This document shows positions 493 through 26,592 of a DNA stretch of 32,000 nucleotides, piece after piece. The stretch comes from Mycolicibacterium smegmatis. Its GTDB lineage: Bacteria > Actinomycetota > Actinomycetes > Mycobacteriales > Mycobacteriaceae. Both the position numbers and the translations under genes were made by a program. The stretch's first letter is position 1; each line of letters opens with the position of its first letter. Below the pieces are notes generated by a model. It saw only the letters and a program-made list of their open reading frames with translations. It was not told the origin of the DNA and made no database searches. The DNA lies in assembly GCF_001457595.1 (NCBI RefSeq), contig NZ_LN831039.1, positions 2,130,001 through 2,162,000 of the forward strand, read 5' to 3'.

Positions 493-515
493 CAGCCCAC
501 CAGAAAGGAACTTCG

Positions 516-1963: not shown

Positions 1964-1999
1964 ATCGATCCAAAGAACCCATAGCGCAAGGAGATTGCA

Positions 2000-3043: not shown

Positions 3044-3783
3044 GTACCGCAGTGATCTCCCTAGAGACGGAGATCCTCGAGGCGCTGGCGACGGTGACCG
3101 ATCCCGAACTCGACGAACCGATCACCGAACTCGGATTCGTGCGCTCGGTGTTCGTCGACGATGACGGGATCACCGTCCATCTGCGGTTGCCGACGGCGTT
3201 CTGTTCCCCGAACTTCGCCTATCTGATGGCTTCTGATGCCCTGGATGCGCTACGCGAACTCGACGACATAGGGGAAGTGCGGGTGTTGCTGGACGACCAT
3301 CACGACAGTGACAAGATCAATGCGGGCCTGGCCGCCGACGCCGGTTATGTCGGCACGTTCGGTGTGGAAGCCGAGAAGAGCCTCGACGCGCTGCGGGAGG
3401 TGTTCTGGCGCAAGGCACACGCGGCGGCGATGGAACGGGCGATCACCTTACTGCTGCGCCAGACACCGATGGACGCCGAGCAGATCGGGCATCTGCTGCT
3501 GCGTGACCTGCCCGAGGGCAAGGCGAAAGCAGCGCTGCTGCGGCGTCGCTTCACTATCGGTCTGAGCAACTGCCCCAACAGCAAGGTACTCGTCGATGAC
3601 GAGGGAAAACCTGTTGCACCCGAGGCGGTTCCCATGCGGCTGCGTTTCGCCCGCTCGGTACGGATCTCGATGGAAGGCAACTCGCATTTCTGCCGGGGCC
3701 TGTTGGCCACACGGTATTCCGACGACGAACCCGCGGGCGCACTGCCCGTCGTGACCGACACCAGAACCCGAAGGAGCAGGTGA
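3040..3783 (+). CDS. DUF59 (SufT/MIP18-like) domain protein with a C-terminal extension of about 150 aa, 247 aa
   Basis: ATG 3040 overlaps the preceding stop (ATGA). The N-terminus EILEALATVTDPELDEPITELGFVRSV...LPTAFCSPNF matches the DUF59 signature, including the conserved Cys. Confidence 0.75.
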   Translation: MSTAVISLETEILEALATVTDPELDEPITELGFVRSVFVDDDGITVHLRLPTAFCSPNFAYLMASDALDALRELDDIGEVRVLLDDHHDSDKINAGLAADAGYVGTFGVEAEKSLDALREVFWRKAHAAAMERAITLLLRQTPMDAEQIGHLLLRDLPEGKAKAALLRRRFTIGLSNCPNSKVLVDDEGKPVAPEAVPMRLRFARSVRISMEGNSHFCRGLLATRYSDDEPAGALPVVTDTRTRRSR

Positions 3784-4808
3784 TGAGAGCTGTGCAGGTG
3801 GTGGGCTACCACCAGAACCTGGAATTGGCCGACGTGGAGAAGCCCACGCCGACAGGTCCGTTCGATGTCGTGGTGAAGATCGGCGGCGCCGGCGTGTGCC
3901 GGACCGATCTGCACATCCTCGAAGGTCAGTGGGCCGAGAAGTCACAGGTGCAACTGCCGTACACGATTGGCCATGAAAATGCCGGTTGGGTCGAATCTGT
4001 CGGGTCCGCGGTCACCAATGTCACAGAAGGCGACAAGGTGATCGTCCATCCGCTGATCACGTGCGGGTTGTGCCGAGCCTGCCGATCCGGGGACGACGTC
4101 CACTGCGAGTCGAACGCGTTTCCCGGGATCGACACCAACGGCGGGTACGCGGAGTATCTCAAGACCTCCGCACGCAGCGTGGTCAAGATCGACGACGCAC
4201 TGGAGCCGGCCGATGTCGCGGCCCTGGCCGACGCGGGTCTGACGGCGTATCACGCCGCCGCCAAGGCCGCTCGCAGGCTGACACCCCGAGACCGGGTCGT
4301 CGTCATCGGCGCAGGAGGTCTGGGCCACATCGGGATTCAGGTGCTCAAAGCGCTGTCACCGGCCGAACTCATCGTCGTCGACCGCAACCCCGAGGCGCTC
4401 AAGCTCGCCGAGGCGATCGGCGCCGACCACTGCGTGATCGCCGACGGCAACCAGATCGAGCAGGTGCGCGACCTCACCGGCGGACACGGCGCCGAGACCG
4501 TGGTCGACTTCGTCGGTGAAGGAGGCGCGACCAGCGAGGGGATCGCCATGTTGCGCAGGGCCGGTGACTACCACGTGGTGGGCTACGGCGAGAACATCGA
4601 TGTGCCCACGATCGACGTGATCTCCACCGAGATCAACTTCATCGGCAACCTCGTCGGTTCCTACAACGACCTGTGCGACCTGATGGCACTGGCCGCCCGG
4701 GGAGCGGTCAACCTGCACACACAGAAGTACGCCCTCGACGACTTCCAGTCCGCCATCACCGATCTGGACAACGGCAACGTCCGCGGGCGCGCGATCCTCG
4801 TCCCCTGA
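3780..4808 (+). CDS. Zn-dependent medium-chain alcohol dehydrogenase, 342 aa (341 aa if ATG 3783 is used)
   Basis: GTG 3780 / ATG 3783 overlap the DUF59 stop (3781-3783), with AAGGAG at 3771-3776. Motifs present: GHENAGWV, structural-Zn CGLCRACRSGDDVHC, and Rossmann VIGAGGLG. Confidence 0.9.
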   Translation: MMRAVQVVGYHQNLELADVEKPTPTGPFDVVVKIGGAGVCRTDLHILEGQWAEKSQVQLPYTIGHENAGWVESVGSAVTNVTEGDKVIVHPLITCGLCRACRSGDDVHCESNAFPGIDTNGGYAEYLKTSARSVVKIDDALEPADVAALADAGLTAYHAAAKAARRLTPRDRVVVIGAGGLGHIGIQVLKALSPAELIVVDRNPEALKLAEAIGADHCVIADGNQIEQVRDLTGGHGAETVVDFVGEGGATSEGIAMLRRAGDYHVVGYGENIDVPTIDVISTEINFIGNLVGSYNDLCDLMALAARGAVNLHTQKYALDDFQSAITDLDNGNVRGRAILVP

Positions 4809-6485
<1,677 letters not shown>

Positions 6486-12733: not shown

Positions 12734-13666
12734 ATGGCCGATGTCGGTGATCTCGAATTCTTCGTGACGCTCGCGGCGGCAGGGACGATGACCGAGGCCG
12801 CACGGCACTGGGGTGTCTCGGTCTCCGTGGTGAGCCGACGGCTCAAGGCTCTCGAAGAACGCCTGGGCACACCGTTGGTGCACCGGCGCGCCCGCGGGCT
12901 CGAGCTCACCGCCGAGGGGCAGCAGTACCACGTGCGGGGGAGCGAAATACTCCAGCAGCTCAAGGATTTGGAGAGCACGCTGAACCCCGATCCCAAGGAC
13001 TTGACGGGTTCGATCCGGGTGATCAGCACCGTCGGCCTCGGGCGAGTGCACATCGCGCCGCTGCTTCACGATTTTCGGCGACGTCACCGGAGCGTCGAGA
13101 TCTCGCTGGAGCTCACGAGCCTGCCGCTGTCGGCTTCGGTGCCCGGTTTCGACATCGCGATTCAGGTCGGGCGGGTGCGCGACTCGTCGCTCGCGATACG
13201 TCAACTGCTGCCCAACCGGCGTGTGGTGGTGGCCTCGCCCGACTACCTCGACGCGCACGGCGCACCGGCGGACCTCGACGACCTCAAGAATCACGAGCTT
13301 CTCGTCGTCCGCGAGAACGAGGGTGAGTCGATCTGGCGATTCGTGAAAGACGGTCGTGAGACGGCGATTCCGGTACGAGGCGGCCTCATCTGCAACGACG
13401 GCATCGCGGTGACCGAATGGTGCCTGGCCGGCGCAGGACTGGCCATGCGCTCGATCTGGCACGTCGCACCGTATGTGCGGGAGGGGCGACTCGTACACGT
13501 GCTGCCCGACGTCGAGACTCCGGAGGCCGACGTCGTCGCGCTGTTCGACGCCGGGGTGCGTACCTCGCCACGCGTGCGAACATTGTTGTCCTTCTTGCGT
13601 AAACAGCTTGCGCAGCGGTGTATCCCGTTACCGACACGACAGGCTGGAGCGGCTCTCCACTGGTAG
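12734..13666 (+). CDS. LysR-family transcriptional regulator, 310 aa
   Basis: N-terminal wHTH LEFFVTLAAAGTMTEAARHWGVSVSVVSRRLKALEERLGTPLVHR, followed by a LysR substrate-binding-like C-terminal domain. AGAGGGG lies upstream of ATG 12734. Confidence 0.9.
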   Translation: MADVGDLEFFVTLAAAGTMTEAARHWGVSVSVVSRRLKALEERLGTPLVHRRARGLELTAEGQQYHVRGSEILQQLKDLESTLNPDPKDLTGSIRVISTVGLGRVHIAPLLHDFRRRHRSVEISLELTSLPLSASVPGFDIAIQVGRVRDSSLAIRQLLPNRRVVVASPDYLDAHGAPADLDDLKNHELLVVRENEGESIWRFVKDGRETAIPVRGGLICNDGIAVTEWCLAGAGLAMRSIWHVAPYVREGRLVHVLPDVETPEADVVALFDAGVRTSPRVRTLLSFLRKQLAQRCIPLPTRQAGAALHW

Positions 13667-13925
13667 TACCGATACAGATCCCGTCGCCGAAACAGACACC
13701 ACGGTCGTGAATTCGCCACCCGATCCCGAAACCGCAACCATGACGTCAAACTCGGCGACGGGACCTCGACAGGAGTTATCCACCGAGACAAGGCCGGAGC
13801 CGGGGCGCATTTTTCGCCTGGGACAAAACGGTGTTGCGTCATGCGGCCTGTCTGGACGGCGGTTTTCTTCCTAACCTCGACATCAGCGAAGGGCGTGTGC
13901 CCGCGCCGAAGCGTGAGGAGTTGTC

Positions 13926-15026
13926 GTGGTCAACAGGTACAAGGTCGCAGTCATCGCCGGTGACGGCATCGGTCGCGAGGTCGTTCCGGAAGGGCTACGG
14001 GTGTTGCAGGCCGCCTCGGAGCGGTTCGGCTTCACCCTGGACCTCGAAGAATTCGACTACGCCAACGTCGACTACTACCTCAAGCACGGCCAGATGATGC
14101 CCGACGACTGGTTCGAGCAGTTGCGGGGATTCGACGCCATCTTCTTCGGCGCGGTCGGCTGGCCCGAACTCGTTCCCGACCACATCTCGCTGTGGGGAAG
14201 CCTGATCCAGTTCCGCCGCCATTTCGACCAATACGTCAACCTGCGCCCCGTGCGCCTGCTGCCCGGCATCGCCGGACCACTCGCCGGCCGCAAACCCGGC
14301 GACATCGACTTCTACGTGGTGCGGGAGAACACCGAGGGCGAGTACTCCAGCATCGGCGGCAAGATCTTCGAGGACACCCCACGTGAGACCGTGATCCAGG
14401 ATACGGTGATGACCCGCGTCGGCGTCGACCGGATTCTGCGGTACGCCTTCGAACTCGCGCAGCGCCGTCCCCGTCGCCTGCTCACCTCGGCGACAAAGAG
14501 CAACGGGATCTCGATCTCCATGCCGTACTGGGACGAGCGCGTCGAGCAGATGTCCACGATGTTCCCGGACGTCTCCGTCAACAAGTTCCACATCGACATC
14601 CTCGCGGCCAACTTCGTGCTGCATCCCGACTGGTTCGACGTTGTGGTTGCGAGCAATCTGTTCGGCGATATCCTCTCCGATCTCGGCCCGGCCTGCACGG
14701 GAACCATCGGCGTCGCTCCCAGCGCCAACATCAACCCCGAGCGCACCTTCCCCAGCCTGTTCGAGCCGGTCCACGGTTCGGCGCCCGACATCGCGGGTCA
14801 GGGGGTTGCGAACCCGGTCGGCCAGATCTGGTGTGCCTCAATGATGCTCGAGCACCTCGGGGAACGCACGGCAGCAAAGGCCGTGCTGGATGCCATCGAA
14901 GCGGTGCTGGCCGACGGTGCGGTGCTCACCCCCGACCTCGGCGGGACGGCGACGACGACGGCGCTGGGAACCGCGATCGCGGACAGCGTCGGCGCGTCGG
15001 CCAGTGCGGGTGCCGGGACGCGCTGA
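13926..15026 (+). CDS. ttuC: Tartrate / D-malate dehydrogenase (decarboxylating), isocitrate/isopropylmalate dehydrogenase superfamily, 366 aa
   Basis: GTG 13926 with GAGGAG 5 nt upstream. Long stretches match what I recall of E. coli DmlA/YeaU and TtuC: AIFFGAVGWPELVPDHISLWGSLIQFRRHFDQYVNLRPVRL, DFYVVRENTEGEYS, LFGDILSDLGPACTGTIGVAPSANINPER, LFEPVHGSAPDI. Confidence 0.85.
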   Translation: MVNRYKVAVIAGDGIGREVVPEGLRVLQAASERFGFTLDLEEFDYANVDYYLKHGQMMPDDWFEQLRGFDAIFFGAVGWPELVPDHISLWGSLIQFRRHFDQYVNLRPVRLLPGIAGPLAGRKPGDIDFYVVRENTEGEYSSIGGKIFEDTPRETVIQDTVMTRVGVDRILRYAFELAQRRPRRLLTSATKSNGISISMPYWDERVEQMSTMFPDVSVNKFHIDILAANFVLHPDWFDVVVASNLFGDILSDLGPACTGTIGVAPSANINPERTFPSLFEPVHGSAPDIAGQGVANPVGQIWCASMMLEHLGERTAAKAVLDAIEAVLADGAVLTPDLGGTATTTALGTAIADSVGASASAGAGTR

Positions 15027-15153
15027 GGGCGCACACGCGTAACGCGGCTCGGTTTCTGGATCCGCCTACTGCAACACACCTTTCACCTCAGGCAACACCT
15101 ACGAAACCGTTCATCGCGTTTACTGACAATCAACCTGGTTTCTCGCAGAGAAA

Positions 15154-15546
15154 ATGGAGATTGTCATGGAAGCGACCACCACTCATCCCCAGTTCAGCGT
15201 CACGCCGGACGCGTGGAAGAACCTGCCGAAGATGCCGGAGGCGGAGTACCCGGGTGCCGAGGGCTACATCGGCGACGTGTACGAGAACCCGGGCGGCAGC
15301 GTGATGTGCAGTGGCTTCTTCGAGTTGGTGCACACCGAGGCGCCGTTGCTCTACGAGTACACCTATGACGAGATGAAGATCGTGCTGGAGGGCGAATTCC
15401 ACCTGGAGAACGTCGACACCGGACAGAAGTCGATCGCCAAGACCAAGGACGCGATCTTCTTCCCGAAGGGGTCCCGCATCCTGTTCAGCACACCCGATCG
15501 TGCGCTGGCCTTCTATACGGGCCATCGCACTGCGGACGGTCTCTGA
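15154..15546 (+). CDS. Small cupin-domain protein (EutQ/DUF861-like), 126-130 aa
   Basis: High-GC3 ORF. The C-terminal half, YTYDEMKIVLEGEFHLENVDTGQKSIAKTKDAIFFPKGSRILFST, is a cupin beta-barrel pattern. ATG 15166 has better SD spacing (GGAG + 7 nt) than ATG 15154. Confidence 0.7.
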   Translation: MEIVMEATTTHPQFSVTPDAWKNLPKMPEAEYPGAEGYIGDVYENPGGSVMCSGFFELVHTEAPLLYEYTYDEMKIVLEGEFHLENVDTGQKSIAKTKDAIFFPKGSRILFSTPDRALAFYTGHRTADGL

Positions 15547-15580
15547 TCGGTCAAGCGACCCGCCGAGATTCCAGCGCAGC

Positions 15581-16117
15581 ATGACGATCACCGAAACGAT
15601 TCCCCCGCAGTTCCCGTCGCTGCCGCAATGGCCTGGAGAACCCGAACCGGTCGACACCACGGCGTCCGCATTCCTGGTGGTGGCCATCGGTGCGGCGCCG
15701 CGCACCGCCGACGTCGCCGGTGAGTGGGTGCAGGCTGCCGAGGCGGTCGCCCCCACCCGCCTGGTGTGCCTGGACGCGATGACCGACGAAGAGGACTGTG
15801 CCAGAATGCAACACGCACTGTCGGAAGTGCGCACCGGCGTGCGCATCATGATCGTCGGCGGACAGTTCGACGTGCTGACGGCGCTCACGATGGCCCGTGC
15901 GGCGGGCGCCATTCCTGCCGAGTTGACCGGTTTCGTCGTGCACACCGACGACGCGCCCATCTTCTGCGCGCAGTGTCGCGGCACGTTCCGGGTGGCGGCA
16001 GGTCCGGGCGACGAGATCGATTGTCGCGGGTGCGCGCGCACCCTGGAGATCCACGGTCATTTCGCGTCGGCGCTGGGCAGTTACCTGGCCTCCGATGCGC
16101 GGGCGAGGGAGATCTGA
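15581..16117 (+). CDS. DmmA-like small subunit (gamma-type) of a heme oxidative N-demethylase/dimethylamine monooxygenase-like system, 178 aa
   Basis: Starts at ATG 15581; the tracked ORF start at 15500 overlaps the cupin gene. The C-terminus has CxxC-x15-CxxC (FCAQCRGTFRVAAGPGDEIDCRGC). The stop abuts the reductase start with 0 nt gap. The family call is from memory of DmmA-family proteins and from context. Confidence 0.65.
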   Translation: MTITETIPPQFPSLPQWPGEPEPVDTTASAFLVVAIGAAPRTADVAGEWVQAAEAVAPTRLVCLDAMTDEEDCARMQHALSEVRTGVRIMIVGGQFDVLTALTMARAAGAIPAELTGFVVHTDDAPIFCAQCRGTFRVAAGPGDEIDCRGCARTLEIHGHFASALGSYLASDARAREI

Positions 16118-17116
16118 ATGACGGTGCTCGACACGGCCGAAGCGCGTTTTCCCGGACACCTCCACCCGGCCTACGACACGACGCCCCGGATGCTGACCGT
16201 CGTCGGCCTCGAACACCTCGCCGGAGACGTCCTGCACATCACGTTCGCGGCCGCCGACGGGCGTGTGCTCACGCCGTACCAACCCGGCAGCCACCTCATC
16301 GTCACGGCGGGCGCCACCCGCAACGCGTACTCGCTGACCGGGGCCGACCTCAACCCGGTCCGCTACGAGATCTCGGTGCTGCGCAAGGCCGACGGCAACG
16401 GGTCGGTGTGGCTGCACGACAACCTCGAACTGGGCATGTCCGTCGAGATCGAAGGCCCGCGTTGCCTTTTCCCGCCCGTGACCAATCAGCGGCACGCGCT
16501 GTTGATCGCCGGTGGCATCGGCGTCACGCCGGTGCTGTCCCACGCCCGCGCCATCGCGCGGGCCGGCGGCACGGCCGATATCGTCTACTCGTACCGACCC
16601 GGGCACGACGCCCATGTCGGCGAGCTGCGCGAACTGGCCGCGCGTCCGGGGATCACGCTGTTCGAGGTGGACACCATCGAGGGCACCCGTGAGCTGCTCG
16701 CCGATCGGCTGGGGGCCCAGCCGTTGGGCACCCACGCCTACGCGTGTGGGCCGATCCCGATGCTCCATACCTACCAGGAGCTTGCCGCACAGGCCGGTTG
16801 GCCTTCGGCCCGGGTGCATCTTGAGCGCTTCACCGCACCGGAACAGGACCCGGGTCTGCCGTTCACGGTGCGCATCGCCTCGACCGGGGAAAACCTCGCA
16901 GTCCCGGCCGGGGTGTCGCTGCTGCAGGCCCTGCTCGACGCAGGCATCGGGGTGAACAACTTGTGCCGGCAGGGCGTGTGCGGCGAATGCCGTATCCCGG
17001 TGACCGCCGGTGTGCTCGAGCACCGCGACTTCGTCCTGACCGAGGAGGAACGCGAGGCCGCAAACAGCATGCTGTGCTGCGTATCTCGCGGATCCGACAT
17101 CGAAGTGGATCTGTGA
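16118..17116 (+). CDS. PDR/VanB-type oxidoreductase (flavin + NAD + plant-type 2Fe-2S), 332 aa
   Basis: RNAYSL (RxYS flavin motif), GGIGVTPVLS (NAD binding), and C-terminal CRQGVCGEC...x28-CC (C-x4-C-x2-C-x~29-C ferredoxin motif). Confidence 0.9.
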   Translation: MTVLDTAEARFPGHLHPAYDTTPRMLTVVGLEHLAGDVLHITFAAADGRVLTPYQPGSHLIVTAGATRNAYSLTGADLNPVRYEISVLRKADGNGSVWLHDNLELGMSVEIEGPRCLFPPVTNQRHALLIAGGIGVTPVLSHARAIARAGGTADIVYSYRPGHDAHVGELRELAARPGITLFEVDTIEGTRELLADRLGAQPLGTHAYACGPIPMLHTYQELAAQAGWPSARVHLERFTAPEQDPGLPFTVRIASTGENLAVPAGVSLLQALLDAGIGVNNLCRQGVCGECRIPVTAGVLEHRDFVLTEEEREAANSMLCCVSRGSDIEVDL

Positions 17117-17144
17117 CCACAGCCGAGAGATTCGAGGATCACTC

Positions 17145-18218
17145 ATGACCGCACACCTGTCGACGCCCTATCTGCGTGACATGGGCGCCAAGGCCGCCGA
17201 CCTGGTGGCCTCGTCGTTGACCCCGGCCGCGGCCGCCTACCTCAACCAGCCGGTAGATCATCTCGCGAGCCTGCCGTGGCCGTTCGCCGACGACGTCACC
17301 TCGTTCCGCTACACCGTCAACGTCGATCCCGCGCGGGTGCCCAGGCCGACGAGGGCCGGAGAATGGGGCAGGCACATCGTCGATCTCGGCGGCGCGGATT
17401 ATCCGGTGAACATGGCCGAACGCCGCCACGTGCTGGACACCGATCCGCAGCGGGTGAAGGTCCGCCCCGGGATGGAACTGGCGTGCTGGGATCTGCTGAT
17501 CTACTACCTGCGAGACCTCGCGCAGTCCTACCCTGACCTGCTGCACCTGGACGAGGACGGCGATCACTTTCATTGGCGCAACGACCTTCTCGGAACCGAT
17601 CAGCATTTCGTCCTCGGCGATACCGGCACGCTGCCCGGTGGTCCGTTGTTCTTCCTGGCCGCCGAAATCCCCGACGATCTGCTACTGGTCATCGAACGCG
17701 ACGGGCGGTTGTACTTCGACGCGGGTGCGGTGACCTTCGCGGCAGCCTGGTCGGCGTCGTTCGATATCGGCATGGACATGTACGAGATCCACGGACCGGT
17801 GCCGCGCATGACAGGGGAGGGGATGACGGCCCGTGCCGAGCAGTTCCTCAAACGACTGCCCGCCAACCAGGTGTACCGCCGCCTGAACTGGAACCTGGCG
17901 GCGTCACCGACGCGGACCTTCGACATCAGCCTGGAAACGCTGCCGGACTGGGGCACCCACATGCCGAGGGCCCTGCGCGACGGCGACGTGTCGCAGGTGC
18001 AGTTCCGCATCGAACTCGAACACTTCATCCGGCTCCCGATGACCGGCGCGGTCACCTTCAACATCCGCACCTTCATGGCGTCGCTGGAAGAGATCCGGGC
18101 GATCCCGGAGTATGCGGAGCAGTTGGCGGCCATCATCGAGGAACTGCCCGACGACATCGCCACCTACAAGGGTTTCGCCGATTACCAAGACGACGTCGTC
18201 GCGTATTTGAGGCGCTGA
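17145..18218 (+). CDS. DUF3445-family protein (heme-dependent oxidative N-demethylase alpha-subunit-like), 357 aa
   Basis: GAGGAT lies upstream of ATG 17145. Size, position after the DmmA-like and PDR-type genes, and segments such as RLNWNLAAS and FRIELEHFIRLPMTGAVTFNIRTF resemble DUF3445 proteins as I recall them. Not search-verified. Confidence 0.65.
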   Translation: MTAHLSTPYLRDMGAKAADLVASSLTPAAAAYLNQPVDHLASLPWPFADDVTSFRYTVNVDPARVPRPTRAGEWGRHIVDLGGADYPVNMAERRHVLDTDPQRVKVRPGMELACWDLLIYYLRDLAQSYPDLLHLDEDGDHFHWRNDLLGTDQHFVLGDTGTLPGGPLFFLAAEIPDDLLLVIERDGRLYFDAGAVTFAAAWSASFDIGMDMYEIHGPVPRMTGEGMTARAEQFLKRLPANQVYRRLNWNLAASPTRTFDISLETLPDWGTHMPRALRDGDVSQVQFRIELEHFIRLPMTGAVTFNIRTFMASLEEIRAIPEYAEQLAAIIEELPDDIATYKGFADYQDDVVAYLRR

Positions 18219-18258
18219 CGCCGACGCCCGCGTGCTTGCGCTGCCGTCCGCTCTATTC

Positions 18259-18281
18259 ATAGAATATTTTCTATAGAGAAC
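18259..18281 (+). promoter_or_regulatory. AT-rich promoter/operator element ATAGAATATTTTCTATAGAGAAC upstream of the acyl-CoA dehydrogenase operon
   Basis: An AT-rich island in a GC-rich genome. It contains a TAGAAT -10-like hexamer (18260-18265) and the palindrome TCTATAGA. It is near-identical to a motif at 22335-22358. Confidence 0.45.
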
Positions 18282-18292
18282 GGAGCGAGGAC

Positions 18293-19447
18293 ATGGCGCT
18301 GACGGCCGAAGAGGAAACCATCGTCAAGACGGTGCACGATTTCGTCGAGAAGCAGGTCAAACCGGTGGTACGGGAGTTGGAGCACGCCAACACCTATCCC
18401 GAAGAGCTGATCGAGACGATGAAGGAGATCGGTATCTTCGGGCTCGCGATCCCGGAGCCGTACGGGTTCGGGGCGGTGTCCATGCCGTGTTACGTGCAGG
18501 TCGCCGAGGAACTGGCCAGGGGCTGGATGAGCCTGGCCGGCGCGATGGGCGGCCACACCGTGGTGTCGAAGCTGCTGTTGCTGTTCGGCACCGAGGAGCA
18601 GAAGCAGAAATACCTGCCGCGGATGGCCACCGGTGAACTGCGCGCCACGATGGCGCTCACCGAACCCGGTGGCGGGTCGGATCTGCAGGCCATGCGCACC
18701 GTCGCGCGCCGGGACGGCGACGACTACGTGATCAACGGCAGCAAGACCTGGATCTCCAACGCGCGGCGCTCGGATCTGGTGGCGCTGATGTGCAAGACCG
18801 ATCCCGACGCGCAGCCCGCACACAAGGGTGTGTCGATCCTCCTGGTGGAGAAGGTGCCCGGCTTCGACGTGTCACGCGACCTACCCAAGCTGGGCTACAA
18901 GGGCGTGGAGAGCTGCGAGCTCAACTTCACCGACGCCCGGGTTCCGGTCTCCTCGCTGCTCGGCGACGACGAGGGCCGTGGGTTCGCGCAGATGATGAAA
19001 GGCCTGGAGGTGGGCCGGTTGCAGGTCGCGGCGCGGGCAACGGGCGTGGCGCGTGCGGCGTTCGAGGATGCGCTGCGGTACTCCCAGGAGCGGGAGAGCT
19101 TCGGCAAGCCGATCTGGCAACACCAGTCGGTCGGAAACATGTTGGCCGACATGGGAACCAAGCTGTATGCAGCGCGCTCGCTGCTGCTCAGTGCGGCCGA
19201 GAAGTTCGACGCGGGGCAACGCTGTGACATGGAGGCCGGCATGGCCAAGCTGTTCGCGTCGGAGACCGCGATGCAGATCGCACTGGACGCCGTACGCGTG
19301 CACGGGGGCTACGGCTATTCCACCGAGTACGACGTCGAACGTTACTTCCGCGATGCGCCACTGATGATCGTCGGCGAGGGCACCAACGAGATCCAGCGCA
19401 ACGTGATCGCCAAACAACTCGTCGCGCGCGGCGGTCTCGACATCTGA
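18293..19447 (+). CDS. Acyl-CoA dehydrogenase, 384 aa
   Basis: Canonical ACAD motifs: ALTEPGGGSDL, YVINGSKTWISNA, QIHGGYGY-type VRVHGGYGYSTEYDVERYFRDAPLMIVGEGTNEIQR. Confidence 0.95.
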   Translation: MALTAEEETIVKTVHDFVEKQVKPVVRELEHANTYPEELIETMKEIGIFGLAIPEPYGFGAVSMPCYVQVAEELARGWMSLAGAMGGHTVVSKLLLLFGTEEQKQKYLPRMATGELRATMALTEPGGGSDLQAMRTVARRDGDDYVINGSKTWISNARRSDLVALMCKTDPDAQPAHKGVSILLVEKVPGFDVSRDLPKLGYKGVESCELNFTDARVPVSSLLGDDEGRGFAQMMKGLEVGRLQVAARATGVARAAFEDALRYSQERESFGKPIWQHQSVGNMLADMGTKLYAARSLLLSAAEKFDAGQRCDMEAGMAKLFASETAMQIALDAVRVHGGYGYSTEYDVERYFRDAPLMIVGEGTNEIQRNVIAKQLVARGGLDI

Positions 19448-20613
19448 TGCACCCGCAGGCCAACGGAAAGTCATTGCCGCTGAGCGGGATCACCGTGCTG
19501 TCGCTGGAACACGCGGTCGCCGCGCCGTTCGCCACGCGGCAACTCGCCGATCTCGGCGCACGCGTGATCAAGGTCGAACGGCCGGGCTCCGGTGATTTCG
19601 CGCGCCAGTACGACGATTCCGTCAACGGCGAGTCGAGCTACTTCGTGTGGCTCAACCGGTCCAAGGAGTCCATCGCGCTCGACGTGAAATCCGAGCACGG
19701 GCACCGGGTGTTGCATGAACTGGCCGACCGCGCCGATGTCGTCGTGCAGAACCTGGGCCCGGGCGCGGCGGCCCGGCTGGGGTTGGCGGCCGAGGACATC
19801 CGGGCCAAGGACCCGCGCAAGATCGTGGTGTCGGTGACGGGATGGGGCAGCACCGGTCCATGGGCCGATCGCAAAGCGTATGACCTGCTGGTCCAGTGCG
19901 AGACGGGACTGGTCTCGTTGACCGGTACCCCCGACGAGGTCGCCAAGGTCGGGGTGTCGATCGCCGACATCGCCGCGGGCATGTACGCCTTCAGCGGCAT
20001 CCTGGCCGCGCTGTACCGCCGCGAGATCACCGGTGAAGGCGCCGTCATCGAGGTGTCGTTGTTCGAGGCGCTGGCCGAATGGGTGGGCCAGCCGGCACAT
20101 TTCACCGCCGGTGCGGGACGTCAGCCCGGCCGGTTCGGCGCCCAGCACGCGACCATCGCACCGTACGGCCCGTTCGAGGCCGCCGACGGACACACCCTCC
20201 TCATCGCGATCCAGAACGAGCCGGAATGGGCGCGGTTCTGCACCACCGTGCTCGGGCGCCCCGAGGTCGCGGAGGATCCGCGATTCGCGTCCAACACGCA
20301 ACGGGTGGCGAACCGGGCGGACGTCAACGCCCTGATCTCCGAGGTGTTCTCGTCACATCCCACCGACGAGTTGGAGTCCCGGCTGACCGAGGCGCGCATC
20401 GCCTTTGCGGGCGTCAACACGGTCAGCGAGTTCCTCGACCATCCGGTGCTCGCGGCCCGTGACCGTTGGCGCTCCGTCGAGACCGAGAACGGACCGGTGC
20501 GCGCCCTGCTGCCACCGCTCGATCTCGGTACCGAAGTGAGGATGGATCCGGTTCCCGCGCTGGGGGCGCACACCGCCGCGATTCTCGCCGAACTCGGCCA
20601 TGGCGACGATTGA
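19447..20613 (+). CDS. Family III CoA-transferase (CaiB/BaiF/Frc type), 388 aa
   Basis: LSGITVLSLEHAVAAPFATRQLADLGARVIKVERPGSGDFAR is the class III N-terminal signature, followed later by ...YDLLVQCETGL.... The start overlaps the previous stop by 1 nt. Confidence 0.9.
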   Translation: MHPQANGKSLPLSGITVLSLEHAVAAPFATRQLADLGARVIKVERPGSGDFARQYDDSVNGESSYFVWLNRSKESIALDVKSEHGHRVLHELADRADVVVQNLGPGAAARLGLAAEDIRAKDPRKIVVSVTGWGSTGPWADRKAYDLLVQCETGLVSLTGTPDEVAKVGVSIADIAAGMYAFSGILAALYRREITGEGAVIEVSLFEALAEWVGQPAHFTAGAGRQPGRFGAQHATIAPYGPFEAADGHTLLIAIQNEPEWARFCTTVLGRPEVAEDPRFASNTQRVANRADVNALISEVFSSHPTDELESRLTEARIAFAGVNTVSEFLDHPVLAARDRWRSVETENGPVRALLPPLDLGTEVRMDPVPALGAHTAAILAELGHGDD

Positions 20614-20621
20614 GAGTTGAT

Positions 20622-21476
20622 ATGAACTCCCTTGAACAGTACGTGGAGAACTGGCGCCCGGGCCCGGTCGTCAGCACCGACCTGCTCGGCCCACAGGCCG
20701 CGGGAAACCTCGCGGCCACACTGGATCTGGATCACGTCCCCGGCGCGGGTGAGGTTCTGCCGGCCCTGTGGCACTGGGTCTACTTCCTGGACTGGCCGCC
20801 GACCGCCGCGCTCGGCACCGACGGGCACCCACGTGACGGTCACTTCATGCCGCCGATCCCGCACCGCCGCAGGATGTTCGCCGGTGGACGCCTGGAGATC
20901 AACGAACCCTTGCGGCTCGGCGAGGCGGCCACGCGGCACTCCGAGGTGGTTTCCACCGCGGTCAAGAGCGGCAAGACCAGTGAACTGATGTTCGTCACTG
21001 TGCGCCACGAGTTCAGCCAGGGCGGTCAGCTGCGCATGACCGAGGAACAGGACCTGGTGTACCGCAGTGATCCGGGTTCGAGCACGCCGTTCACACGGGT
21101 CACCGAACCGCTGGCAGAGCGCACCACCCCGTGGGCTGCCGAACCCGCGACACATCCGGCGCTGCTGTTCAGGTTCAGTGCCGTGACCGCGAACTCACAC
21201 CGCATCCACTACGACGCCGAGTACACCTGCGGTGTCGAAGGCTTTCCGGCGCTCGTGGTCCACGGACCGCTGCTGGTGCTGTACATGGCCGAACTGGCGC
21301 GGGCACACAGCACGCGACCCATCAAGAACTTCCGATTCCGTTTGACCAAGCCGGTTTTCGTCGGTGACGCGATCCGTGTACAAGGCACCCCGGCTGCCGA
21401 CGGCGCCGCCGCTGAACTGGCGGTGGTGACTGGTTCCGGAACAGTTCACGCGAGCGCACAGGCCGAGTACGCGTGA
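20622..21476 (+). CDS. Double hot-dog MaoC-type (R)-specific enoyl-CoA hydratase, itaconyl/mesaconyl-CoA hydratase-like, 284 aa
   Basis: ATG 20622; the tracked ORF start at 20466 overlaps the CoA-transferase. The C-terminal half has FSAVTANSHRIHYDAEY...GFPALVVHGPL, the MaoC dehydratase motif. Confidence 0.8.
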   Translation: MNSLEQYVENWRPGPVVSTDLLGPQAAGNLAATLDLDHVPGAGEVLPALWHWVYFLDWPPTAALGTDGHPRDGHFMPPIPHRRRMFAGGRLEINEPLRLGEAATRHSEVVSTAVKSGKTSELMFVTVRHEFSQGGQLRMTEEQDLVYRSDPGSSTPFTRVTEPLAERTTPWAAEPATHPALLFRFSAVTANSHRIHYDAEYTCGVEGFPALVVHGPLLVLYMAELARAHSTRPIKNFRFRLTKPVFVGDAIRVQGTPAADGAAAELAVVTGSGTVHASAQAEYA

Positions 21477-21604
21477 ACGCCCGGTACACCACCGACACGC
21501 TCAGGACGGCCAGATCGTTCCTGTTCGTACCGGGCAACCGGCCAGAGCGGTTCAGCAAGGCAGTCGCGGCGCAGCCGGATGTGGTCGTGCTCGACCTGGA
21601 GTGA
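21473..21604 (+). pseudogene. Truncated 5' remnant (43 codons) of a CitE/HpcH-family acyl-CoA lyase gene
   Basis: GTG 21473 overlaps the hydratase stop (GTGA). The translation VNARYTTDTLRTARSFLFVPGNRPERFSKAVAAQPDVVVLDLE* matches the CitE N-terminus and stops where the LDLED Asp is expected. Only 37 nt separate it from the convergent GntR stop. Confidence 0.6.
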
Positions 21605-21641
21605 TGCTCGCTCGTGGCCGCAGCGTCTCGCACCTGGCGAA

Positions 21642-22325
21642 TCAGCCGAGGGTTCCGCTCGCAGCGAGGTGTTCGGCCAGCAGTGTGCCCGCACGGCGGA
21701 TGTGTTGAGCCATGGCTTCTCTGGCGCCCTCGGCGTCACCCGAGCGCAGCTTCTCGATGATCGCGCGGTGATCGTGCGCCGACGCCTCCGGCCAGCCTTC
21801 GACCGCGGCGAAGAACTTCCGCGGGGCGTAGGGCAGTGTCGCCTTGATCAGCCAGCGGATCTTCCGCGACCCGGACAGCCGGTAGATGGTCTGGTGGAAC
21901 CGGTGATTGAGCCGTTCGACGTCGTCGTAGTCCTTGCCCGCGGCGGCCTGCTCGAGCTGGGCCTGGATGTTCTCGAGTTCTTCCACCAACTCCGCGGTGA
22001 TCACGCCCGCGGCGCGTGCCGTCAACTCACCGCCGAGCAGGGCCTGGGCGTCGTAGACGTCACGGATGTCCTCGCTGGACAACGCCGTCACCGAGAAACC
22101 CTTGCGGGGTTCGATGGTGAGGAAGCCCTCCGTCTGCAACAGCAGCAGACCCTCGCGGGCCGGTGTGGCGCTGATGCCGAGGTCGTCGGCCACCGTCTCA
22201 GGCCGGATGAACTCACCGGCCCGAAGCTGACCCGACACGATGAGTTCACGCACGTGAGCCGCCGCGAGATCACTGAGCCGCAGCGGCGGTGTGCGCTTGC
22301 GATCGGTCGCGGCCGTCGGTCTCAC
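21642..22325 (-). CDS. GntR-family (FadR/FCD subfamily) transcriptional regulator, 227 aa
   Basis: wHTH LRAGEFIRPETVADDLGISATPAREGLLLLQTEGFLTIEPRKGFSV plus a helical FCD-like C-terminal domain. I prefer GTG (complement of 22323-22325) over the tracked TTG at 22367, because the extra 14 codons lie in an AT-rich, promoter-like stretch. Confidence 0.85.
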   Translation of the reverse strand: MRPTAATDRKRTPPLRLSDLAAAHVRELIVSGQLRAGEFIRPETVADDLGISATPAREGLLLLQTEGFLTIEPRKGFSVTALSSEDIRDVYDAQALLGGELTARAAGVITAELVEELENIQAQLEQAAAGKDYDDVERLNHRFHQTIYRLSGSRKIRWLIKATLPYAPRKFFAAVEGWPEASAHDHRAIIEKLRSGDAEGAREAMAQHIRRAGTLLAEHLAASGTLG

Positions 22326-22331
22326 GGTTTG

Positions 22332-22358
22332 AATATAGTCAATTTTCTGTAGTAGAAC
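22332..22358. promoter_or_regulatory. Divergent promoter/operator. It contains a minus-strand TATATT -10 box (22332-22337) and the plus-strand motif ATAGTCAATTTTCTGTAGTAGAAC (22335-22358).
   Basis: TATATT ends 6 nt before the GntR GTG, which is leaderless geometry. The motif shares 19 of 23 aligned positions with 18259-18281. Confidence 0.45.
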
Positions 22359-22516
22359 CGGCAGCAACGCGCAGCGTCTCCGCGCTGACGCAGGTCACCG
22401 CGCCGACGTCCCCGGCGCTCGGCGGATGTGGCCGACGGTCACCCAACTGCCAGGCGCGGGGAATAGCCTGGGGTCGGCGGGCGATGCACACGGTGATCAA
22501 CAGTCAGGGGACAGGC

Positions 22517-23347
22517 ATGAAAATCGGCATCTCGACCTTCGTCAACGACGACACCATCGATGCGGTGACGCTTGCCCGCGCGATCGAGGAACGCGGCTTC
22601 CATTCGTTGGTGATCGCCGAGCACTCACACATCCCGGCCAGCCGCGAGTCGGCCTATCCGGGCGGAGACGAGCTGCCGCAGAAGTACTACCGCACGCTCG
22701 ACCCGTTCGTCACGCTGGCGGCGGCCGCGGCGGTGACGACGAAGATCGAGCTGTTCACCGGCGTGGCCCTGCTGATCCAGCGCGACGTCATCCACACCGC
22801 GAAGGAGGCCGCGAGCGTCGACCTGATCTCGAACGGACGGTTCGTCTTCGGTGTCGGCGCCGGCTGGAACCTGGAGGAGATGCGCAACCACGGCACCGAC
22901 CCGAAGACGCGCGGGCGCCTGCTCGACGAACAGATCGAGGCGATCAAGGCGTTGTGGACGCAGGAGCCCGCCGAATACCACGGCAAGTACGTGGACATCG
23001 AGTCGTCGTACATGCGTCCCAAACCGGTGCAGAAGCCGCACCCGCCGATCTACATCGGAGGCGCGTCCGAGGCCACCGTCAAGCGCGTGATCCGCCACGA
23101 CGCCGGATGGATCTCCAACCCGTTGCCGGTGGACTTCTTGAGCAAGTTCGTGACACAGATGCGCGACGGTCTGGGTCACGAGGTCCCGCTCGCGCAGTTC
23201 GGCACGCCGGCGGATCCGGAGTACTGGGGCGCGGTCGAAGAACTCGGGTTCGGACAGATCGCGTTGTTGCTGCCGACGCTGCCGACCGACGAATCCCTGC
23301 GCATGCTCGACGACTACGCGACCGCGGTGGAGAAATACCGCGGGTAG
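22517..23347 (+). CDS. LLM-class (luciferase-like) F420-dependent oxidoreductase, 276 aa
   Basis: MKIGISTFVNDDTIDAVTLARAIEERGFHSLVIAEHSHIP... and GRFVFGVGAGWNLEEM are typical LLM/F420 signatures. The tracked start at 22289 runs through the promoter region. ATG 22484 is a possible alternative start. Confidence 0.85.
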   Translation: MKIGISTFVNDDTIDAVTLARAIEERGFHSLVIAEHSHIPASRESAYPGGDELPQKYYRTLDPFVTLAAAAAVTTKIELFTGVALLIQRDVIHTAKEAASVDLISNGRFVFGVGAGWNLEEMRNHGTDPKTRGRLLDEQIEAIKALWTQEPAEYHGKYVDIESSYMRPKPVQKPHPPIYIGGASEATVKRVIRHDAGWISNPLPVDFLSKFVTQMRDGLGHEVPLAQFGTPADPEYWGAVEELGFGQIALLLPTLPTDESLRMLDDYATAVEKYRG

Positions 23348-23358
23348 GGGACCTGCCT

Positions 23359-23389
23359 GACGTCGGCGAATTTGCGGGTTGCCGACGTC
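23359..23389 (+). terminator. Perfect 9-bp inverted repeat GACGTCGGC-N13-GCCGACGTC just after the LLM stop. It could be a tail-less terminator or an RNA-stabilising hairpin.
   Basis: Read directly from the sequence. No T-run follows, so the function is uncertain. Confidence 0.3.
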
Positions 23390-23484
23390 GCGCGCCGTCG
23401 ACGGTGATCGGAAGTCGGCACCGCAGGGTTGACGCTGTAGCTAAGCTGTCAAGCCAAGCGCCGACCCCGAGGGGGAATCCGAGC

Positions 23485-25245
23485 ATGACTTTCGACAAGG
23501 TGATCCTGGGCGGCCGTCTGTTCGACGGCACCGGCGGTCCATCTGCCCTGCGCAACATCGGCATCCGCGACGGCCGCGTCGCCGCGATCACCGCCGACGC
23601 CGTCGAGGGCACCGAGACCGTCGACGCCAGCGGGTGCTGGGTGATGCCCGGCATGATCGACATCCACACCCACTACGACGCCGAGGTGCTCGCCGCGCCG
23701 GGGCTGACCGAGTCGCTGCGCCACGGCGTCACGTCCATCGTGATGGGATCGTGCTCACTGTCGACGGTGCACGTCAACGGATCCGAGGCCGCCGACCTGT
23801 TCGGCCGCGTCGAGGCCATCCCGCACGAGCACGTGGTGCGCATCGTCGGCGAGCACAAGACCTGGAACAACGCCGAGGAATACATCGAGGCGCTCGAGGC
23901 GCGGCCGCTGGGGCCCAACGTCACGGCGTTCATCGGTCACTCCGACATCCGCGTCGCCGTCATGGGCCTGGACCGGGCCACCCGCAAGGATGTCCGCCCC
24001 ACCAAGGCCGAGCAGGCCCGCATGGAACAGATGCTCACCGACGCGCTCGACGCCGGATTCATCGGGTTGTCCTCGCAGCAACTGCTTTTCGACAAGCTCG
24101 ACGGCGACGTGTGCCGCTCGCGCACGCTGCCTTCCACCTATGCCAGGGCGAAAGAACTGCGCCGGCTCAAGTCGATCCTGCGGCGACGTGACCGCACACT
24201 GCAATCCGGGCCCGACATCAGCCATCCGCACAACATCGTCTCGCAGGCGTTTCAGTCCGTGGGCATCGGCAGGCCGCGCCTGAAGACCAGCCTGCTGGCT
24301 GCTGCCGATATGAAATCCACGCCGGGCGGCATGTGGTTCACGGTGGCGCTGGCGGCGATCGCCAACCGGTTGGGCGGGGACTTCCGCTTCCAGCACCTGC
24401 CGGTCCCGTTCGAGGTGTATGCCGACGGCATCGACCTCGTGATCTTCGAGGAGTTCGGATCCGGCGCTGCGGCACTGCATCTCAAGACCGAGATGGAGCG
24501 CAACAAGCTGCTTGCCGACGAGGGCTACCGGCGCCGGTTCCGCAAGGACTACGACAACAAGTTCGGCCCGCGGGCCTGGCACCGCGATTTCTTCGACGCC
24601 GAGATCGTGGCGTGCCCGGACCCCAGTGTGATCGGCAAGAGTTTCGGCGACGTCGGTGTGGAACGCGGCCGCCTGCACCCCGTCGACGCGTTCCTTGACC
24701 TCGTCCTCGAGCACGGCAGCCAACTACGTTGGCGCACCACGATTTCCAACCACCGTCCGAAAGCGCTGCGGCAGTTGGCGGTCAGCAGCGGAATCCAGGT
24801 CGGCTTCTCCGACGCCGGCGCGCACCTGCGCAACATGGCGTTCTACAACAGCGGGCTGCGCCTGCTGCGCCACGTCCGCGACGCCGGGTTCATGAGCGTC
24901 GAGGACGCCGTGTACCGGCTCACCGGTGAACTCGCCGACTGGTACCACCTGGACGCCGGACATCTGCGGATGGGGGACTGGGCCGACGTCGTCGTGATCG
25001 ACCCGCAGTATCTCGACGCCGGCCTCGACGAGTACCACGAGGCCCCCGTGGAGGCGTTCGGTGGGATGCAGCGCATGGTCAACCGCAACGACCGCACCGT
25101 GAAAACCGTTCTGGTGGCCGGTCATACGGTGTTCGCCGAGGGCACGCCCACCGAACTCGTCGGCCGACGGCGCACCGGCAGCTTCATGCGCGCGGACGGC
25201 AGACCACGCAACGCGCCACTGCGCCGCGAGAGTGTTGCCGTATGA
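23485..25245 (+). CDS. D-aminoacylase / N-acyl-D-amino-acid deacylase-family amidohydrolase, 586 aa
   Basis: ATG 23485 with GAGGGGG upstream. The N-terminus VILGGRLFDGTGGP...IRDGRVAAI...DASGCWVMPGMIDIHTHYD is the family signature. The 353-codon upstream part of tracked ORF 22426..25245 overlaps the LLM gene out of frame. Confidence 0.85.
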   Translation: MTFDKVILGGRLFDGTGGPSALRNIGIRDGRVAAITADAVEGTETVDASGCWVMPGMIDIHTHYDAEVLAAPGLTESLRHGVTSIVMGSCSLSTVHVNGSEAADLFGRVEAIPHEHVVRIVGEHKTWNNAEEYIEALEARPLGPNVTAFIGHSDIRVAVMGLDRATRKDVRPTKAEQARMEQMLTDALDAGFIGLSSQQLLFDKLDGDVCRSRTLPSTYARAKELRRLKSILRRRDRTLQSGPDISHPHNIVSQAFQSVGIGRPRLKTSLLAAADMKSTPGGMWFTVALAAIANRLGGDFRFQHLPVPFEVYADGIDLVIFEEFGSGAAALHLKTEMERNKLLADEGYRRRFRKDYDNKFGPRAWHRDFFDAEIVACPDPSVIGKSFGDVGVERGRLHPVDAFLDLVLEHGSQLRWRTTISNHRPKALRQLAVSSGIQVGFSDAGAHLRNMAFYNSGLRLLRHVRDAGFMSVEDAVYRLTGELADWYHLDAGHLRMGDWADVVVIDPQYLDAGLDEYHEAPVEAFGGMQRMVNRNDRTVKTVLVAGHTVFAEGTPTELVGRRRTGSFMRADGRPRNAPLRRESVAV

Positions 25246-26349: not shown

Positions 26350-26592
26350 TTCTCTCACTCCTCGTCAAGCGCCCCGGGTCGCGGGGACTTTTTGTCTGTC
26401 TGGCGTTCTCGTGCGGGGATCACCCGCACTTATCGGAACGCCTCAATCGTGCTTGTTAATTTCTTGTAACGCAAATTTTTCGGTGTGAGGTTGGCTACAG
26501 CCGTACAGATTCCTGTCGATAAAGGTGTGCGCCGTCGCAAACTCATTCAGGAGGGGGCTCGATCACTCGAGGCGCGACCGGCCCCCCATTTA

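Follow-up and report, generated by a model that had tools for sequence, protein, structure and literature searches.

A GlnR-activated operon of Mycolicibacterium smegmatis with the genes of a probable heme-dependent N-demethylase and a leader cupin

Introduction

Which reaction is carried out by a demethylase-like gene cluster that opens with a cupin gene and contains no gene for a folate-binding subunit? This question is raised by a 32,000-nucleotide stretch of the Mycolicibacterium smegmatis genome (contig NZ_LN831039.1, positions 2,130,001 to 2,162,000; the whole stretch is called the window below). Four of its genes, MSMEG_1987-1990, encode a cupin and three proteins that resemble the dimethylamine monooxygenase DmmABC and the heme-dependent oxidative N-demethylase (HODM). 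An earlier note, made from the sequence alone, had suggested that the cluster is a variant with a different substrate or a different way of handling the aldehyde product. Our analysis indicates that MSMEG_1987-1990 is quite probably a GlnR-activated nitrogen-scavenging operon, which encodes a three-component heme-dependent oxidative N-demethylase of the DmmABC/HODM type together with the leader cupin. The absence of the folate subunit and the presence of the cupin turned out to be features common to a large actinobacterial clade, and the cluster is best read as an uncharacterised dimethylamine monooxygenase variant. The products of the four genes are given as uncharacterised in two studies of nitrogen control (PMC3662644, PMC4222082). 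We searched the literature on DUF3445, HODM and dmm genes in Actinobacteria, on Gordonia and trimethylamine and on smegmatis and dimethylamine, and found no characterisation of the actinobacterial system.

A cluster of the three-component demethylase type

The four open reading frames (ORFs) lie on the forward strand and are separated by 34, 0 and 28 nt, which confirmed the co-directional, tightly packed arrangement described in the earlier note (coordinates are given in Table 1). In the public annotation the cupin begins at an ATG 12 nt after the first possible one. This choice leaves the gap between the cupin and the DmmA gene unchanged, and a GGAG is positioned 7 nt upstream of the annotated ATG. 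The Rfam scan of the whole window found no RNA family, and no riboswitch was evident upstream of the cupin. The scan of positions 14900-18500 for sigma-70 promoters and terminators gave nothing above shuffle expectation, the sigma-70 scan being uninformative for mycobacteria.

The 357-aa product has the same sequence as ABK75664.1 of M. smegmatis, and the neighbouring genes match M. smegmatis records. The public name of the reductase, 'Phenoxybenzoate dioxygenase beta subunit', is the description of MSMEG_1989 in the tables of the GlnR regulon, while the acyl-CoA dehydrogenase downstream of the operon fits MSMEG_1991, 'Isovaleryl-CoA dehydrogenase'. Since the descriptions of MSMEG_1989 and MSMEG_1991 match the reductase and the downstream gene, we assigned the four genes to MSMEG_1987 (cupin), 1988, 1989 and 1990.

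The earlier assignment to the Dmm/HODM type was borne out by the profile search, in which both the 178-aa and the 357-aa product matched the models of the expected families. All three demethylase subunits scored above the curated cut-offs of their models. The 357-aa protein was found by the HODM_asu-like model PF11927 with 195 bits (E 1.9e-57, cut-off 25) and matches the structure 5LTE in the Protein Data Bank (PDB) with an E-value of 4.8e-63. The 178-aa protein passed not only the NF041259 model but also PF22289 (DmmA-like_C; 31.2 bits vs a cut-off of 27.4). The cysteine and reductase motifs that had been listed before are readable in the translations: the DmmA-like protein ends in CAQC-x15-CRGC, and the reductase contains RNAYS, GGIGVTP and C-x4-C-x2-C-x28-CC. 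Identity to the Pseudomonas HODM subunits is 37% for alpha, 43% for beta and 26% for gamma. The gene order A-B-C, with the reductase between A and C, is the order of the Pseudomonas locus.

The AlphaFold model of the alpha subunit reached a mean predicted local distance difference test score (pLDDT) of 76 and a predicted template modelling score (pTM) of 0.79. With this model, Foldseek returned 5LTE and 5LTH, the latter a complex with dimethylamine, at template modelling (TM) scores of 0.78-0.83, and no other PDB match below E 1e-3. His216, which corresponds to His194 of HODM, is the sole histidine that is invariant in the proteobacterial enzymes and in both actinobacterial clades of alpha subunits (C1 and C2, see below). 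It is positioned in a low-confidence loop of the model, and its conservation in the alignment suggests that it may be the heme ligand.

With an alignment of alpha-subunit homologues we retrieved 75 genome loci, all of them from Actinobacteria, with genera that include Gordonia, Nocardioides, Aeromicrobium, Nocardia, Cryobacterium, Corynebacterium and Mycobacterium. Gene conservation across these loci was counted by tblastn with the proteins of the window. DmmB and DmmC were present in all 75, DmmA in 73 and the cupin in 70.

Control by GlnR and nitrogen starvation

The regulation of the operon gives the clearest indication of its physiological context. In the chromatin immunoprecipitation sequencing (ChIP-seq) study of GlnR, peak 15 was assigned to MSMEG_1987, a gene labelled there as an operon (Jenkins et al. 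2013, PMC3662644). Under nitrogen limitation, the fold changes between the wild type and the glnR deletion strain were 120.7 for MSMEG_1987, 42.4 for MSMEG_1988, 19.8 for MSMEG_1989 and 32.9 for MSMEG_1990, and MSMEG_1991 showed a 4-fold GlnR-dependent change only (PMC3662644). In a separate starvation array MSMEG_1987 was induced 42.5-fold, MSMEG_1988 18.75-fold and MSMEG_1990 9.45-fold (PMC4222082). By GlnR binding upstream and GlnR-dependent induction in these published data, MSMEG_1987-1990 is a member of the GlnR regulon. The operon is activated by GlnR in the published ChIP-seq and arrays, and therefore the cupin is co-transcribed with the demethylase genes. The cupin gene opens the operon and shows its strongest induction, which contradicts the possibility, left open in the earlier note, that it is transcriptionally unlinked from the cluster.

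A GlnR box is present upstream of the cupin and fits the M. smegmatis consensus Gn2AC-n6-GnAAC (PMC3662644). The motif by itself is not significant in the window, where we counted 6 matches vs 4.1 expected. A second GlnR-like site lies further downstream in the window, at a distance of 11,362 bp. A spacing of 11,360 bp separates peaks 15 and 16 of the ChIP-seq study, and peak 16 was assigned to MSMEG_1999, which is repressed 2-fold. Since the spacing of the sites agrees with the spacing of the peaks to within 2 bp, the mapping of the GlnR box upstream of the cupin is supported. Among 66 related loci, 17 have a strict GlnR box ahead of the cupin, in one and the same orientation throughout, vs 3.2% of background windows (p ~2e-11).

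Elsewhere in M. smegmatis, the gene set MSMEG_6259-6263 (amt1-glnT-MSMEG_6261-6263) is GlnR-induced 20-256 fold. Another region outside the window, MSMEG_4634-4639 near amtA, has two ChIP peaks and contains GlnR-induced hypothetical genes and a 'vanillate O-demethylase oxidoreductase', which is a VanB-type reductase (PMC3662644, PMC4222082). This might be another reductase-dependent amine oxygenase system, and we considered it as a possible second set.

The missing folate-binding subunit and the fate of formaldehyde

The earlier note had reported that the window contains no GcvT-like gene, and our searches agree. The Pfam scans of all plausible genes of the window found no GCV_T domain. We rebuilt the HODM alpha sequence from a PDB alignment, which led to a 95%-identical Metapseudomonas gene. 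The locus of this gene has the order DmmA-DmmB-DmmC-GcvT(delta)-PurU-FolD-Tmm-Tdm and is without a cupin. When the Pseudomonas HODM delta, Tdm, PurU and FolD proteins were used in tblastn, there were no matches in the window or in the 75 loci, and in none of the 75 were tmm or tdm present within 10 kb. Within 10 kb of the genes, the folate subunit is thus missing throughout this actinobacterial clade.

It does not follow that the chemistry is unusual. DmmABC alone turns dimethylamine into methylamine in E. coli, and DmmD is an accessory protein which couples formaldehyde to tetrahydrofolate (Lidbury et al. 2017, PMC5520151). Since DmmABC is active without DmmD, the missing subunit is not evidence of exotic chemistry. 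A shifted substrate, which the earlier note had also suggested, keeps some room because the alpha subunit of M. smegmatis belongs to a diverged paralogue, C2.

A candidate for the handling of formaldehyde was found in the closest relative with seven genes, Mycobacterium sp. NAZ190054 (locus L001; 88% identity of the alpha subunit). Directly after DmmC this locus encodes an S-(hydroxymethyl)mycothiol dehydrogenase (L001 10042-11139; TIGR03451, 683 bits, cut-off 513), and homologues of this enzyme are also present in L011, L053 and L130. Formaldehyde is thus likely to be oxidised by a mycothiol-dependent route. In the same locus, genes for an NCS1-type permease, an AsnC regulator, a Rieske oxygenase and another PDR-type reductase lie ahead of the cupin (L001 69-4409). 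The best match of the Rieske oxygenase is GbcA, with 152 bits, far under the cut-off of 670. Together with the formaldehyde dehydrogenase after the cluster, these genes suggest a longer pathway that starts from a quaternary or tertiary amine.

The leader cupin

The product of MSMEG_1987 passed the broader Pfam EutQ model only. With the NCBIfam EutQ equivalog NF012001 it scored 43.6 bits vs a cut-off of 193. It matches the EutQ structure 2PYT (E 2e-10), and YDE..LEG and (F/I)PKGS are common to both proteins. Its close family is small, with 296 cluster representatives at E<=1e-3 and 8 at E<=1e-30 among 1.84 billion. Across the loci the cupin is better conserved than DmmA (48-82% vs 30-71% identity). 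It has 34 invariant residues, and there is no conserved histidine and no conserved cysteine among them. Tyr63, Tyr65, Tyr67, Glu69, Lys71, Asp95 and Lys101 belong to the invariant positions. Since a conserved histidine is missing, a classical metal-cupin site is unlikely. The AlphaFold prediction made for the cupin without an alignment was unusable (pLDDT 44). Some relatives of the cupin (P0398-P0401, P0407 and P0410) are 213-418 aa long and consist of two to four tandem cupin-like stretches.

A scan of metagenomes with the cupin alignment gave 80 loci, in which the cupin most often precedes Dmm sets. Close homologues with 50-78% identity head not only Dmm operons but also at least 14 Tdm-Tmm operons in metagenome contigs. 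The contigs with the order cupin-Tdm-Tmm are L095-L101, L104, L109, L114, L116, L120, L122 and L124; they have about 68% G+C, and their cupins are 66-71% identical to that of M. smegmatis. By Pfam, the contig L098 encodes DUF1989 and GCV_T followed by an FMO-like protein, and L120 and L122 continue with another stretch that resembles HODM delta (37%). In L151, L154 and L158 the cupin is directly upstream of Tmm, and L146 has Tmm first, then the cupin and one set-1 Dmm. In Gram-positive methylotrophs, EutQ-like cupins have also been noted next to Tmo, Mao and a reductase gene (McTaggart et al. 2015, PMC5023230). The cupin is a general leader gene of methylated-amine operons.

These contexts bear on the idea that the cupin takes the place of DmmD (HODM delta) as the fourth, formaldehyde-handling subunit. 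The counts agree with it, since the cupin is in 70 of the 75 loci and a GcvT-like gene in none, and so do the strong conservation of the cupin and its place as the most induced gene of the operon. However, the same cupin heads operons whose Tdm carries GCV_T, with the delta-like stretch added in two of them, and this co-occurrence makes a replacement of DmmD unlikely. The Tmm reaction, next to which the cupin is also found, releases no formaldehyde. The protein conserves neither a histidine nor a cysteine that could serve metal or thiol chemistry, and a metagenome-assembled genome (MAG) described below (L067) has the demethylase genes without the cupin. We therefore consider the replacement improbable and regard the cupin as a conserved accessory or leader protein of methylated-amine operons.

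Conserved neighbours in related loci

The neighbours of the operon in other Actinobacteria point in the direction of nitrogen assimilation. By tblastn, an Amt transporter after ABC genes was present in 54 of the 75 loci and a type III glutamine synthetase (GmaS-like; TIGR03105, 581 bits) in 52. GATase, GXGXG and Glu_synthase proteins, which are MgsA/B/C-like, were found in 46-48 loci, a SoxB-like oxidoreductase with flavin adenine dinucleotide (a sarcosine-oxidase-like flavoprotein) in 47 and an XRE-cupin regulator in 39. From the families of these proteins, the conserved set would represent the methylamine route of GmaS and MgsABC, followed by a candidate N-methylglutamate oxidase. The corresponding set of M. 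smegmatis is MSMEG_6259-6263, and the conserved neighbours together with the co-regulated genes indicate small methylated amines that feed the GmaS/N-methylglutamate route. Large unlabelled ORFs near the related clusters were considered as GcvT or SoxA-like proteins and proved to be unrelated (LTD, gamma-glutamyltranspeptidase, EutB, P-type ATPase, ABC transporter and others). In Nocardioides sp. GY 10113 the large subunit of ethanolamine ammonia-lyase (L040 1701-4652; EutB domain, 684 bits) is encoded a few kb upstream of the cupin-Dmm cluster. This may be a coincidence or a hint of a wider small-amine island.

The genes that flank the operon in M. smegmatis behave differently. From the tartrate/D-malate dehydrogenase on one side and the acyl-CoA genes on the other, the earlier note had derived an N- or O-methylated organic acid as the substrate. 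These genes do adjoin the operon in the window, the 4-fold GlnR dependence of MSMEG_1991 is consistent with some read-through, and a diverged paralogue such as the C2 alpha subunit would fit an altered substrate. Nevertheless, tartrate dehydrogenase, LysR, CoA-transferase and MaoC were found in none of the 75 loci and a distant acyl-CoA dehydrogenase in two. Since the synteny of the flanks is not kept in the related loci, the flanking genes of M. smegmatis are incidental. They also stand outside the GlnR operon: MSMEG_1986 is not in the regulon tables searched, and the 4-fold change of MSMEG_1991 compares with 20-120-fold for the operon. The conserved neighbours are genes of nitrogen and methylamine assimilation, and the other partners of the cupin are Tdm and Tmm. 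A methylated-acid demethylase is, in our view, highly improbable.

Two paralogous sets and the substrate of C2

Most relatives have about 3 kb between the cupin and the orthologous DmmA downstream of it, and this interval contains a second DmmA-DmmB-DmmC set. By tblastn, 70 of the 75 loci carry both alpha paralogues, C1 and C2, behind one cupin; the exceptions are short contigs and the MAG L067. The order is cup-A1B1C1-A2B2C2 in Gordonia and many others and cup-A2B2C2-A1B1C1 in several Nocardioides, while Cryobacterium has divergent operons. A neighbour-joining tree places C1 and C2 as sisters, with the proteobacterial enzymes outside them. The window encodes the C2 set only, which is the more derived one. 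Gordonia and some others encode C1 and the DmmA of set 2 as a single fusion protein (505-525 aa, PF11927 and PF22289; for example L009 7414-8976 of Gordonia terrae, and proteins P0305-P0395). This fusion suggests that the two demethylase sets associate physically in one complex.

Several observations weigh against the reading of MSMEG_1987-1990 as a nitrogen-scavenging N-demethylase operon acting on dimethylamine. C2 is less like the characterised proteobacterial enzymes than C1 (38% vs 45% identity). At 9 positions a conserved residue is common to C1 and the proteobacterial proteins and different in C2, and the reverse occurs at none. This divergence means that the substrate of MSMEG_1990 may differ from dimethylamine. 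Since 70 of the 75 relatives carry both sets and Gordonia has the fusion, the sets may normally work together, whereas M. smegmatis would have to rely on set 2 alone: of 1,438 C1 homologues, the best 120 are all at least 70% identical, and no M. smegmatis C1 was present among these 120. An uncultured Mycolicibacterium MAG (L067 8449-11056; alpha 80% identical) has A2-B2-C2 without the cupin and without set 1 within 10 kb, which shows that the cupin need not adjoin the demethylase genes. The transporter and the GmaS/Mgs genes of M. smegmatis lie apart from MSMEG_1987-1990. Finally, we found no biochemical or genetic test in the literature for these genes or for any actinobacterial member.

An alternative is that the C2 enzyme acts on another small amine. 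It could demethylate trimethylamine, in which case C2 and C1 would together convert trimethylamine stepwise, via dimethylamine, into methylamine, independently of Tmm and Tdm. It could also act on methylamine with direct release of ammonia, or on another small secondary or tertiary amine. The sister clades with their asymmetric divergence agree with this, as does the presence of both sets in nearly all loci, with tmm and tdm within 10 kb in none. The set-1-only locus L146 adjoins Tmm, as expected if C1 is the dimethylamine enzyme, and L001 has the GbcA-like Rieske oxygenase and the reductase upstream of its cupin. On the other hand, M. smegmatis appears to have C2 alone, and an enzyme strictly converting trimethylamine into dimethylamine would yield no assimilable nitrogen. 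Specificity is also not defined by sequence divergence alone. We consider such a substrate for C2 rather unlikely, with dimethylamine still preferred.

The idea can be extended into a broader, speculative scheme that we put forward tentatively. Here C2 would be a neofunctionalised heme N-demethylase which prefers another substrate to dimethylamine, such as trimethylamine or a different N-methyl compound. C1 and C2 would form a cascade in most Actinobacteria, possibly as one complex, and replace Tmm and Tdm. The histidine-free EutQ-like cupin would then be an unrecognised accessory factor of Dmm, Tdm-Tmm and amine-oxidase operons. This scheme is possible, though we would sooner doubt it than rely on it.

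The single set with unrelated flanks is an atypical arrangement, and M. smegmatis could in principle have lost set 1 and the adjacent assimilation genes and kept a useless remnant in decay. However, all four ORFs are intact, their motifs and invariant residues are kept, and the operon sequences are near-identical across many M. smegmatis genomes. The induction by GlnR is strong and specific. It is very hard to reconcile these features with decay, and we give this explanation almost no weight.

Proposed function

We propose that MSMEG_1987-1990 serves the scavenging of nitrogen from methylated amines. Electrons would pass from NAD(P)H to the flavin and [2Fe-2S] cluster of the PDR-type reductase MSMEG_1989 and from there to the heme that the PAS-fold alpha subunit MSMEG_1990 is predicted to bind. 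The DmmA-like MSMEG_1988, with its four cysteines, would be the third structural subunit. The heme would activate O2 and hydroxylate an N-methyl group of a small methylated amine, and the resulting carbinolamine would collapse into formaldehyde and an amine with one methyl group fewer. The most probable reaction is the conversion of dimethylamine into methylamine; trimethylamine or another secondary or tertiary amine is also possible. The primary amine could be assimilated through the co-induced amt1-glnT-MSMEG_6261-6263 genes, which are GmaS/MgsABC-like. Formaldehyde would be passed to an actinobacterial mycothiol-dependent dehydrogenase and not to tetrahydrofolate. The cupin would act as an accessory or leader protein and not as a stand-in for DmmD.

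By this proposal, four strongly nitrogen-regulated 'uncharacterised' genes of a model mycobacterium gain a concrete, testable function, and MSMEG_1987-1990 would be linked with the amt1-glnT-mgs genes as a single methylated-amine scavenging route. Actinobacteria have their own widespread version of the dimethylamine monooxygenase system, with no folate-binding subunit, usually two paralogous sets and a conserved cupin. This matters for the question of which bacteria in soil and wastewater use up methylated amines, and for gene-marker surveys based on dmmD, tmm or tdm. The association of the cupin with three unrelated methylated-amine enzymes makes it a good target in the search for a missing accessory function.

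Other genes in the window

The remaining genes of the window fall into separate groups (Table 1). A soluble di-iron monooxygenase cluster comprises a Phenol_Hydrox subunit, an amidohydrolase, an Fe-S assembly protein, a zinc alcohol dehydrogenase and a GroEL-like chaperonin. We take it to be the mimABCD / MSMEG_1971-1978 region of propane and phenol monooxygenase. Upstream of the operon, a LysR regulator (closest models YafC and TtdR) precedes the tartrate dehydrogenase (TIGR02089, 572 bits, cut-off 470), and the two appear to form a tartrate/D-malate unit of their own, with no relation to the demethylase operon. Downstream are an acyl-CoA dehydrogenase, a family III CoA-transferase and a MaoC-type hydratase, with a stop/start overlap at 19447. 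The 4-fold GlnR dependence of MSMEG_1991 probably arises from read-through. A 257-aa ORF gave no Pfam match. In the 939-aa ORF the sole Pfam match is Amidohydro_3 at residues 397-579 and the long N-terminal part is unmatched. This ORF may have a miscalled start or consist of two merged genes.

Table 1. Features of the cupin-demethylase operon and other genes and sites of the window (window coordinates)
Feature	Coordinates	Strand	Remarks
GlnR box GCAAC-n6-GAAAC	15092..15107	+	59-74 nt upstream of the annotated cupin start; fits consensus
EutQ-like cupin, MSMEG_1987, operon gene 1	15166..15546 (ATG at 15154 alternative)	+	126 aa (130 aa for 15154-15546); Pfam EutQ PF06249, 46.8 bits (cut-off 21)
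DmmA-family (HODM gamma-like) subunit, MSMEG_1988	15581..16117	+	178 aa; NF041259, 95.4 bits (cut-off 60)
PDR/VanB-type flavin-NAD(P)H-[2Fe-2S] reductase (DmmB / HODM beta-like), MSMEG_1989	16118..17116	+	332 aa; FAD_binding_6, NAD_binding_1, Fer2
Predicted heme PAS-type oxygenase subunit (DmmC / HODM alpha-like, DUF3445), MSMEG_1990, C2 clade	17145..18218	+	357 aa; PF11927
Second GlnR-like site GTTAA-tttctt-GTAAC	26454-26469		intergenic, after alpha/beta hydrolase gene
Soluble di-iron monooxygenase cluster	381-6485		
LysR regulator and tartrate dehydrogenase	12734-15026		
Acyl-CoA dehydrogenase, CoA-transferase and MaoC-type hydratase	18293-21476		
ORF	21579-22352		257 aa
ORF with Amidohydro_3 match	22426-25245		939 aa

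Comparison with known systems

A related published account is that of the Gram-positive methylotrophy islands of methylamine utilisers (Arthrobacter, Mycobacterium, Lake Washington; PMC5023230), where EutQ-like cupins are found next to Tmo, Mao and a 'ferredoxin/flavodoxin NAD(P)-binding' gene. Its authors suggested that these cupins take part in methylated-amine oxidation, and they reported GmaS/MgsABC clusters from Mycobacterium. The partners DmmA and DUF3445 went unrecognised, and dimethylamine was assumed to be a further substrate of Tmo; the two paralogous sets and the link to GlnR were not described. With EutQ itself, the cupin of ethanolamine utilisation and an acetate kinase (Salmonella 2PYT, Clostridioides 4AXO), the cupin of the window shares the cupin core, and both are encoded in small-amine catabolic operons. 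However, with 233 positions the NCBIfam EutQ model is twice as long as the cupin, and no microcompartment or eut domains turned up in the Pfam scans of the window.

The alpha-beta-gamma-delta HODM of Pseudomonas mendocina (5LTE, 5LTH, 5LTI) resembles the window in the homology of the subunits, the predicted fold and the invariant histidine. The difference lies in the partners, since the Metapseudomonas locus has the GcvT-like delta subunit, PurU, FolD, Tmm and Tdm and no cupin. None of those five partners is in the window or in the 75 loci.

By family model and gene order, the DmmABC(D) systems of Ruegeria pomeroyi, Methylocella silvestris and Paracoccus aminophilus have the same succession of a DmmA-family protein, a PDR-type reductase and a DUF3445 heme subunit. 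The window and the 75 actinobacterial loci differ from them in having no DmmD (GcvT), and the window has the EutQ-like cupin as its leader gene. Its alpha subunit belongs to an actinobacterial paralogue clade and is about 38% identical to the proteobacterial alpha subunits. The operon of M. smegmatis is controlled by GlnR and would serve nitrogen scavenging rather than methylotrophic growth.

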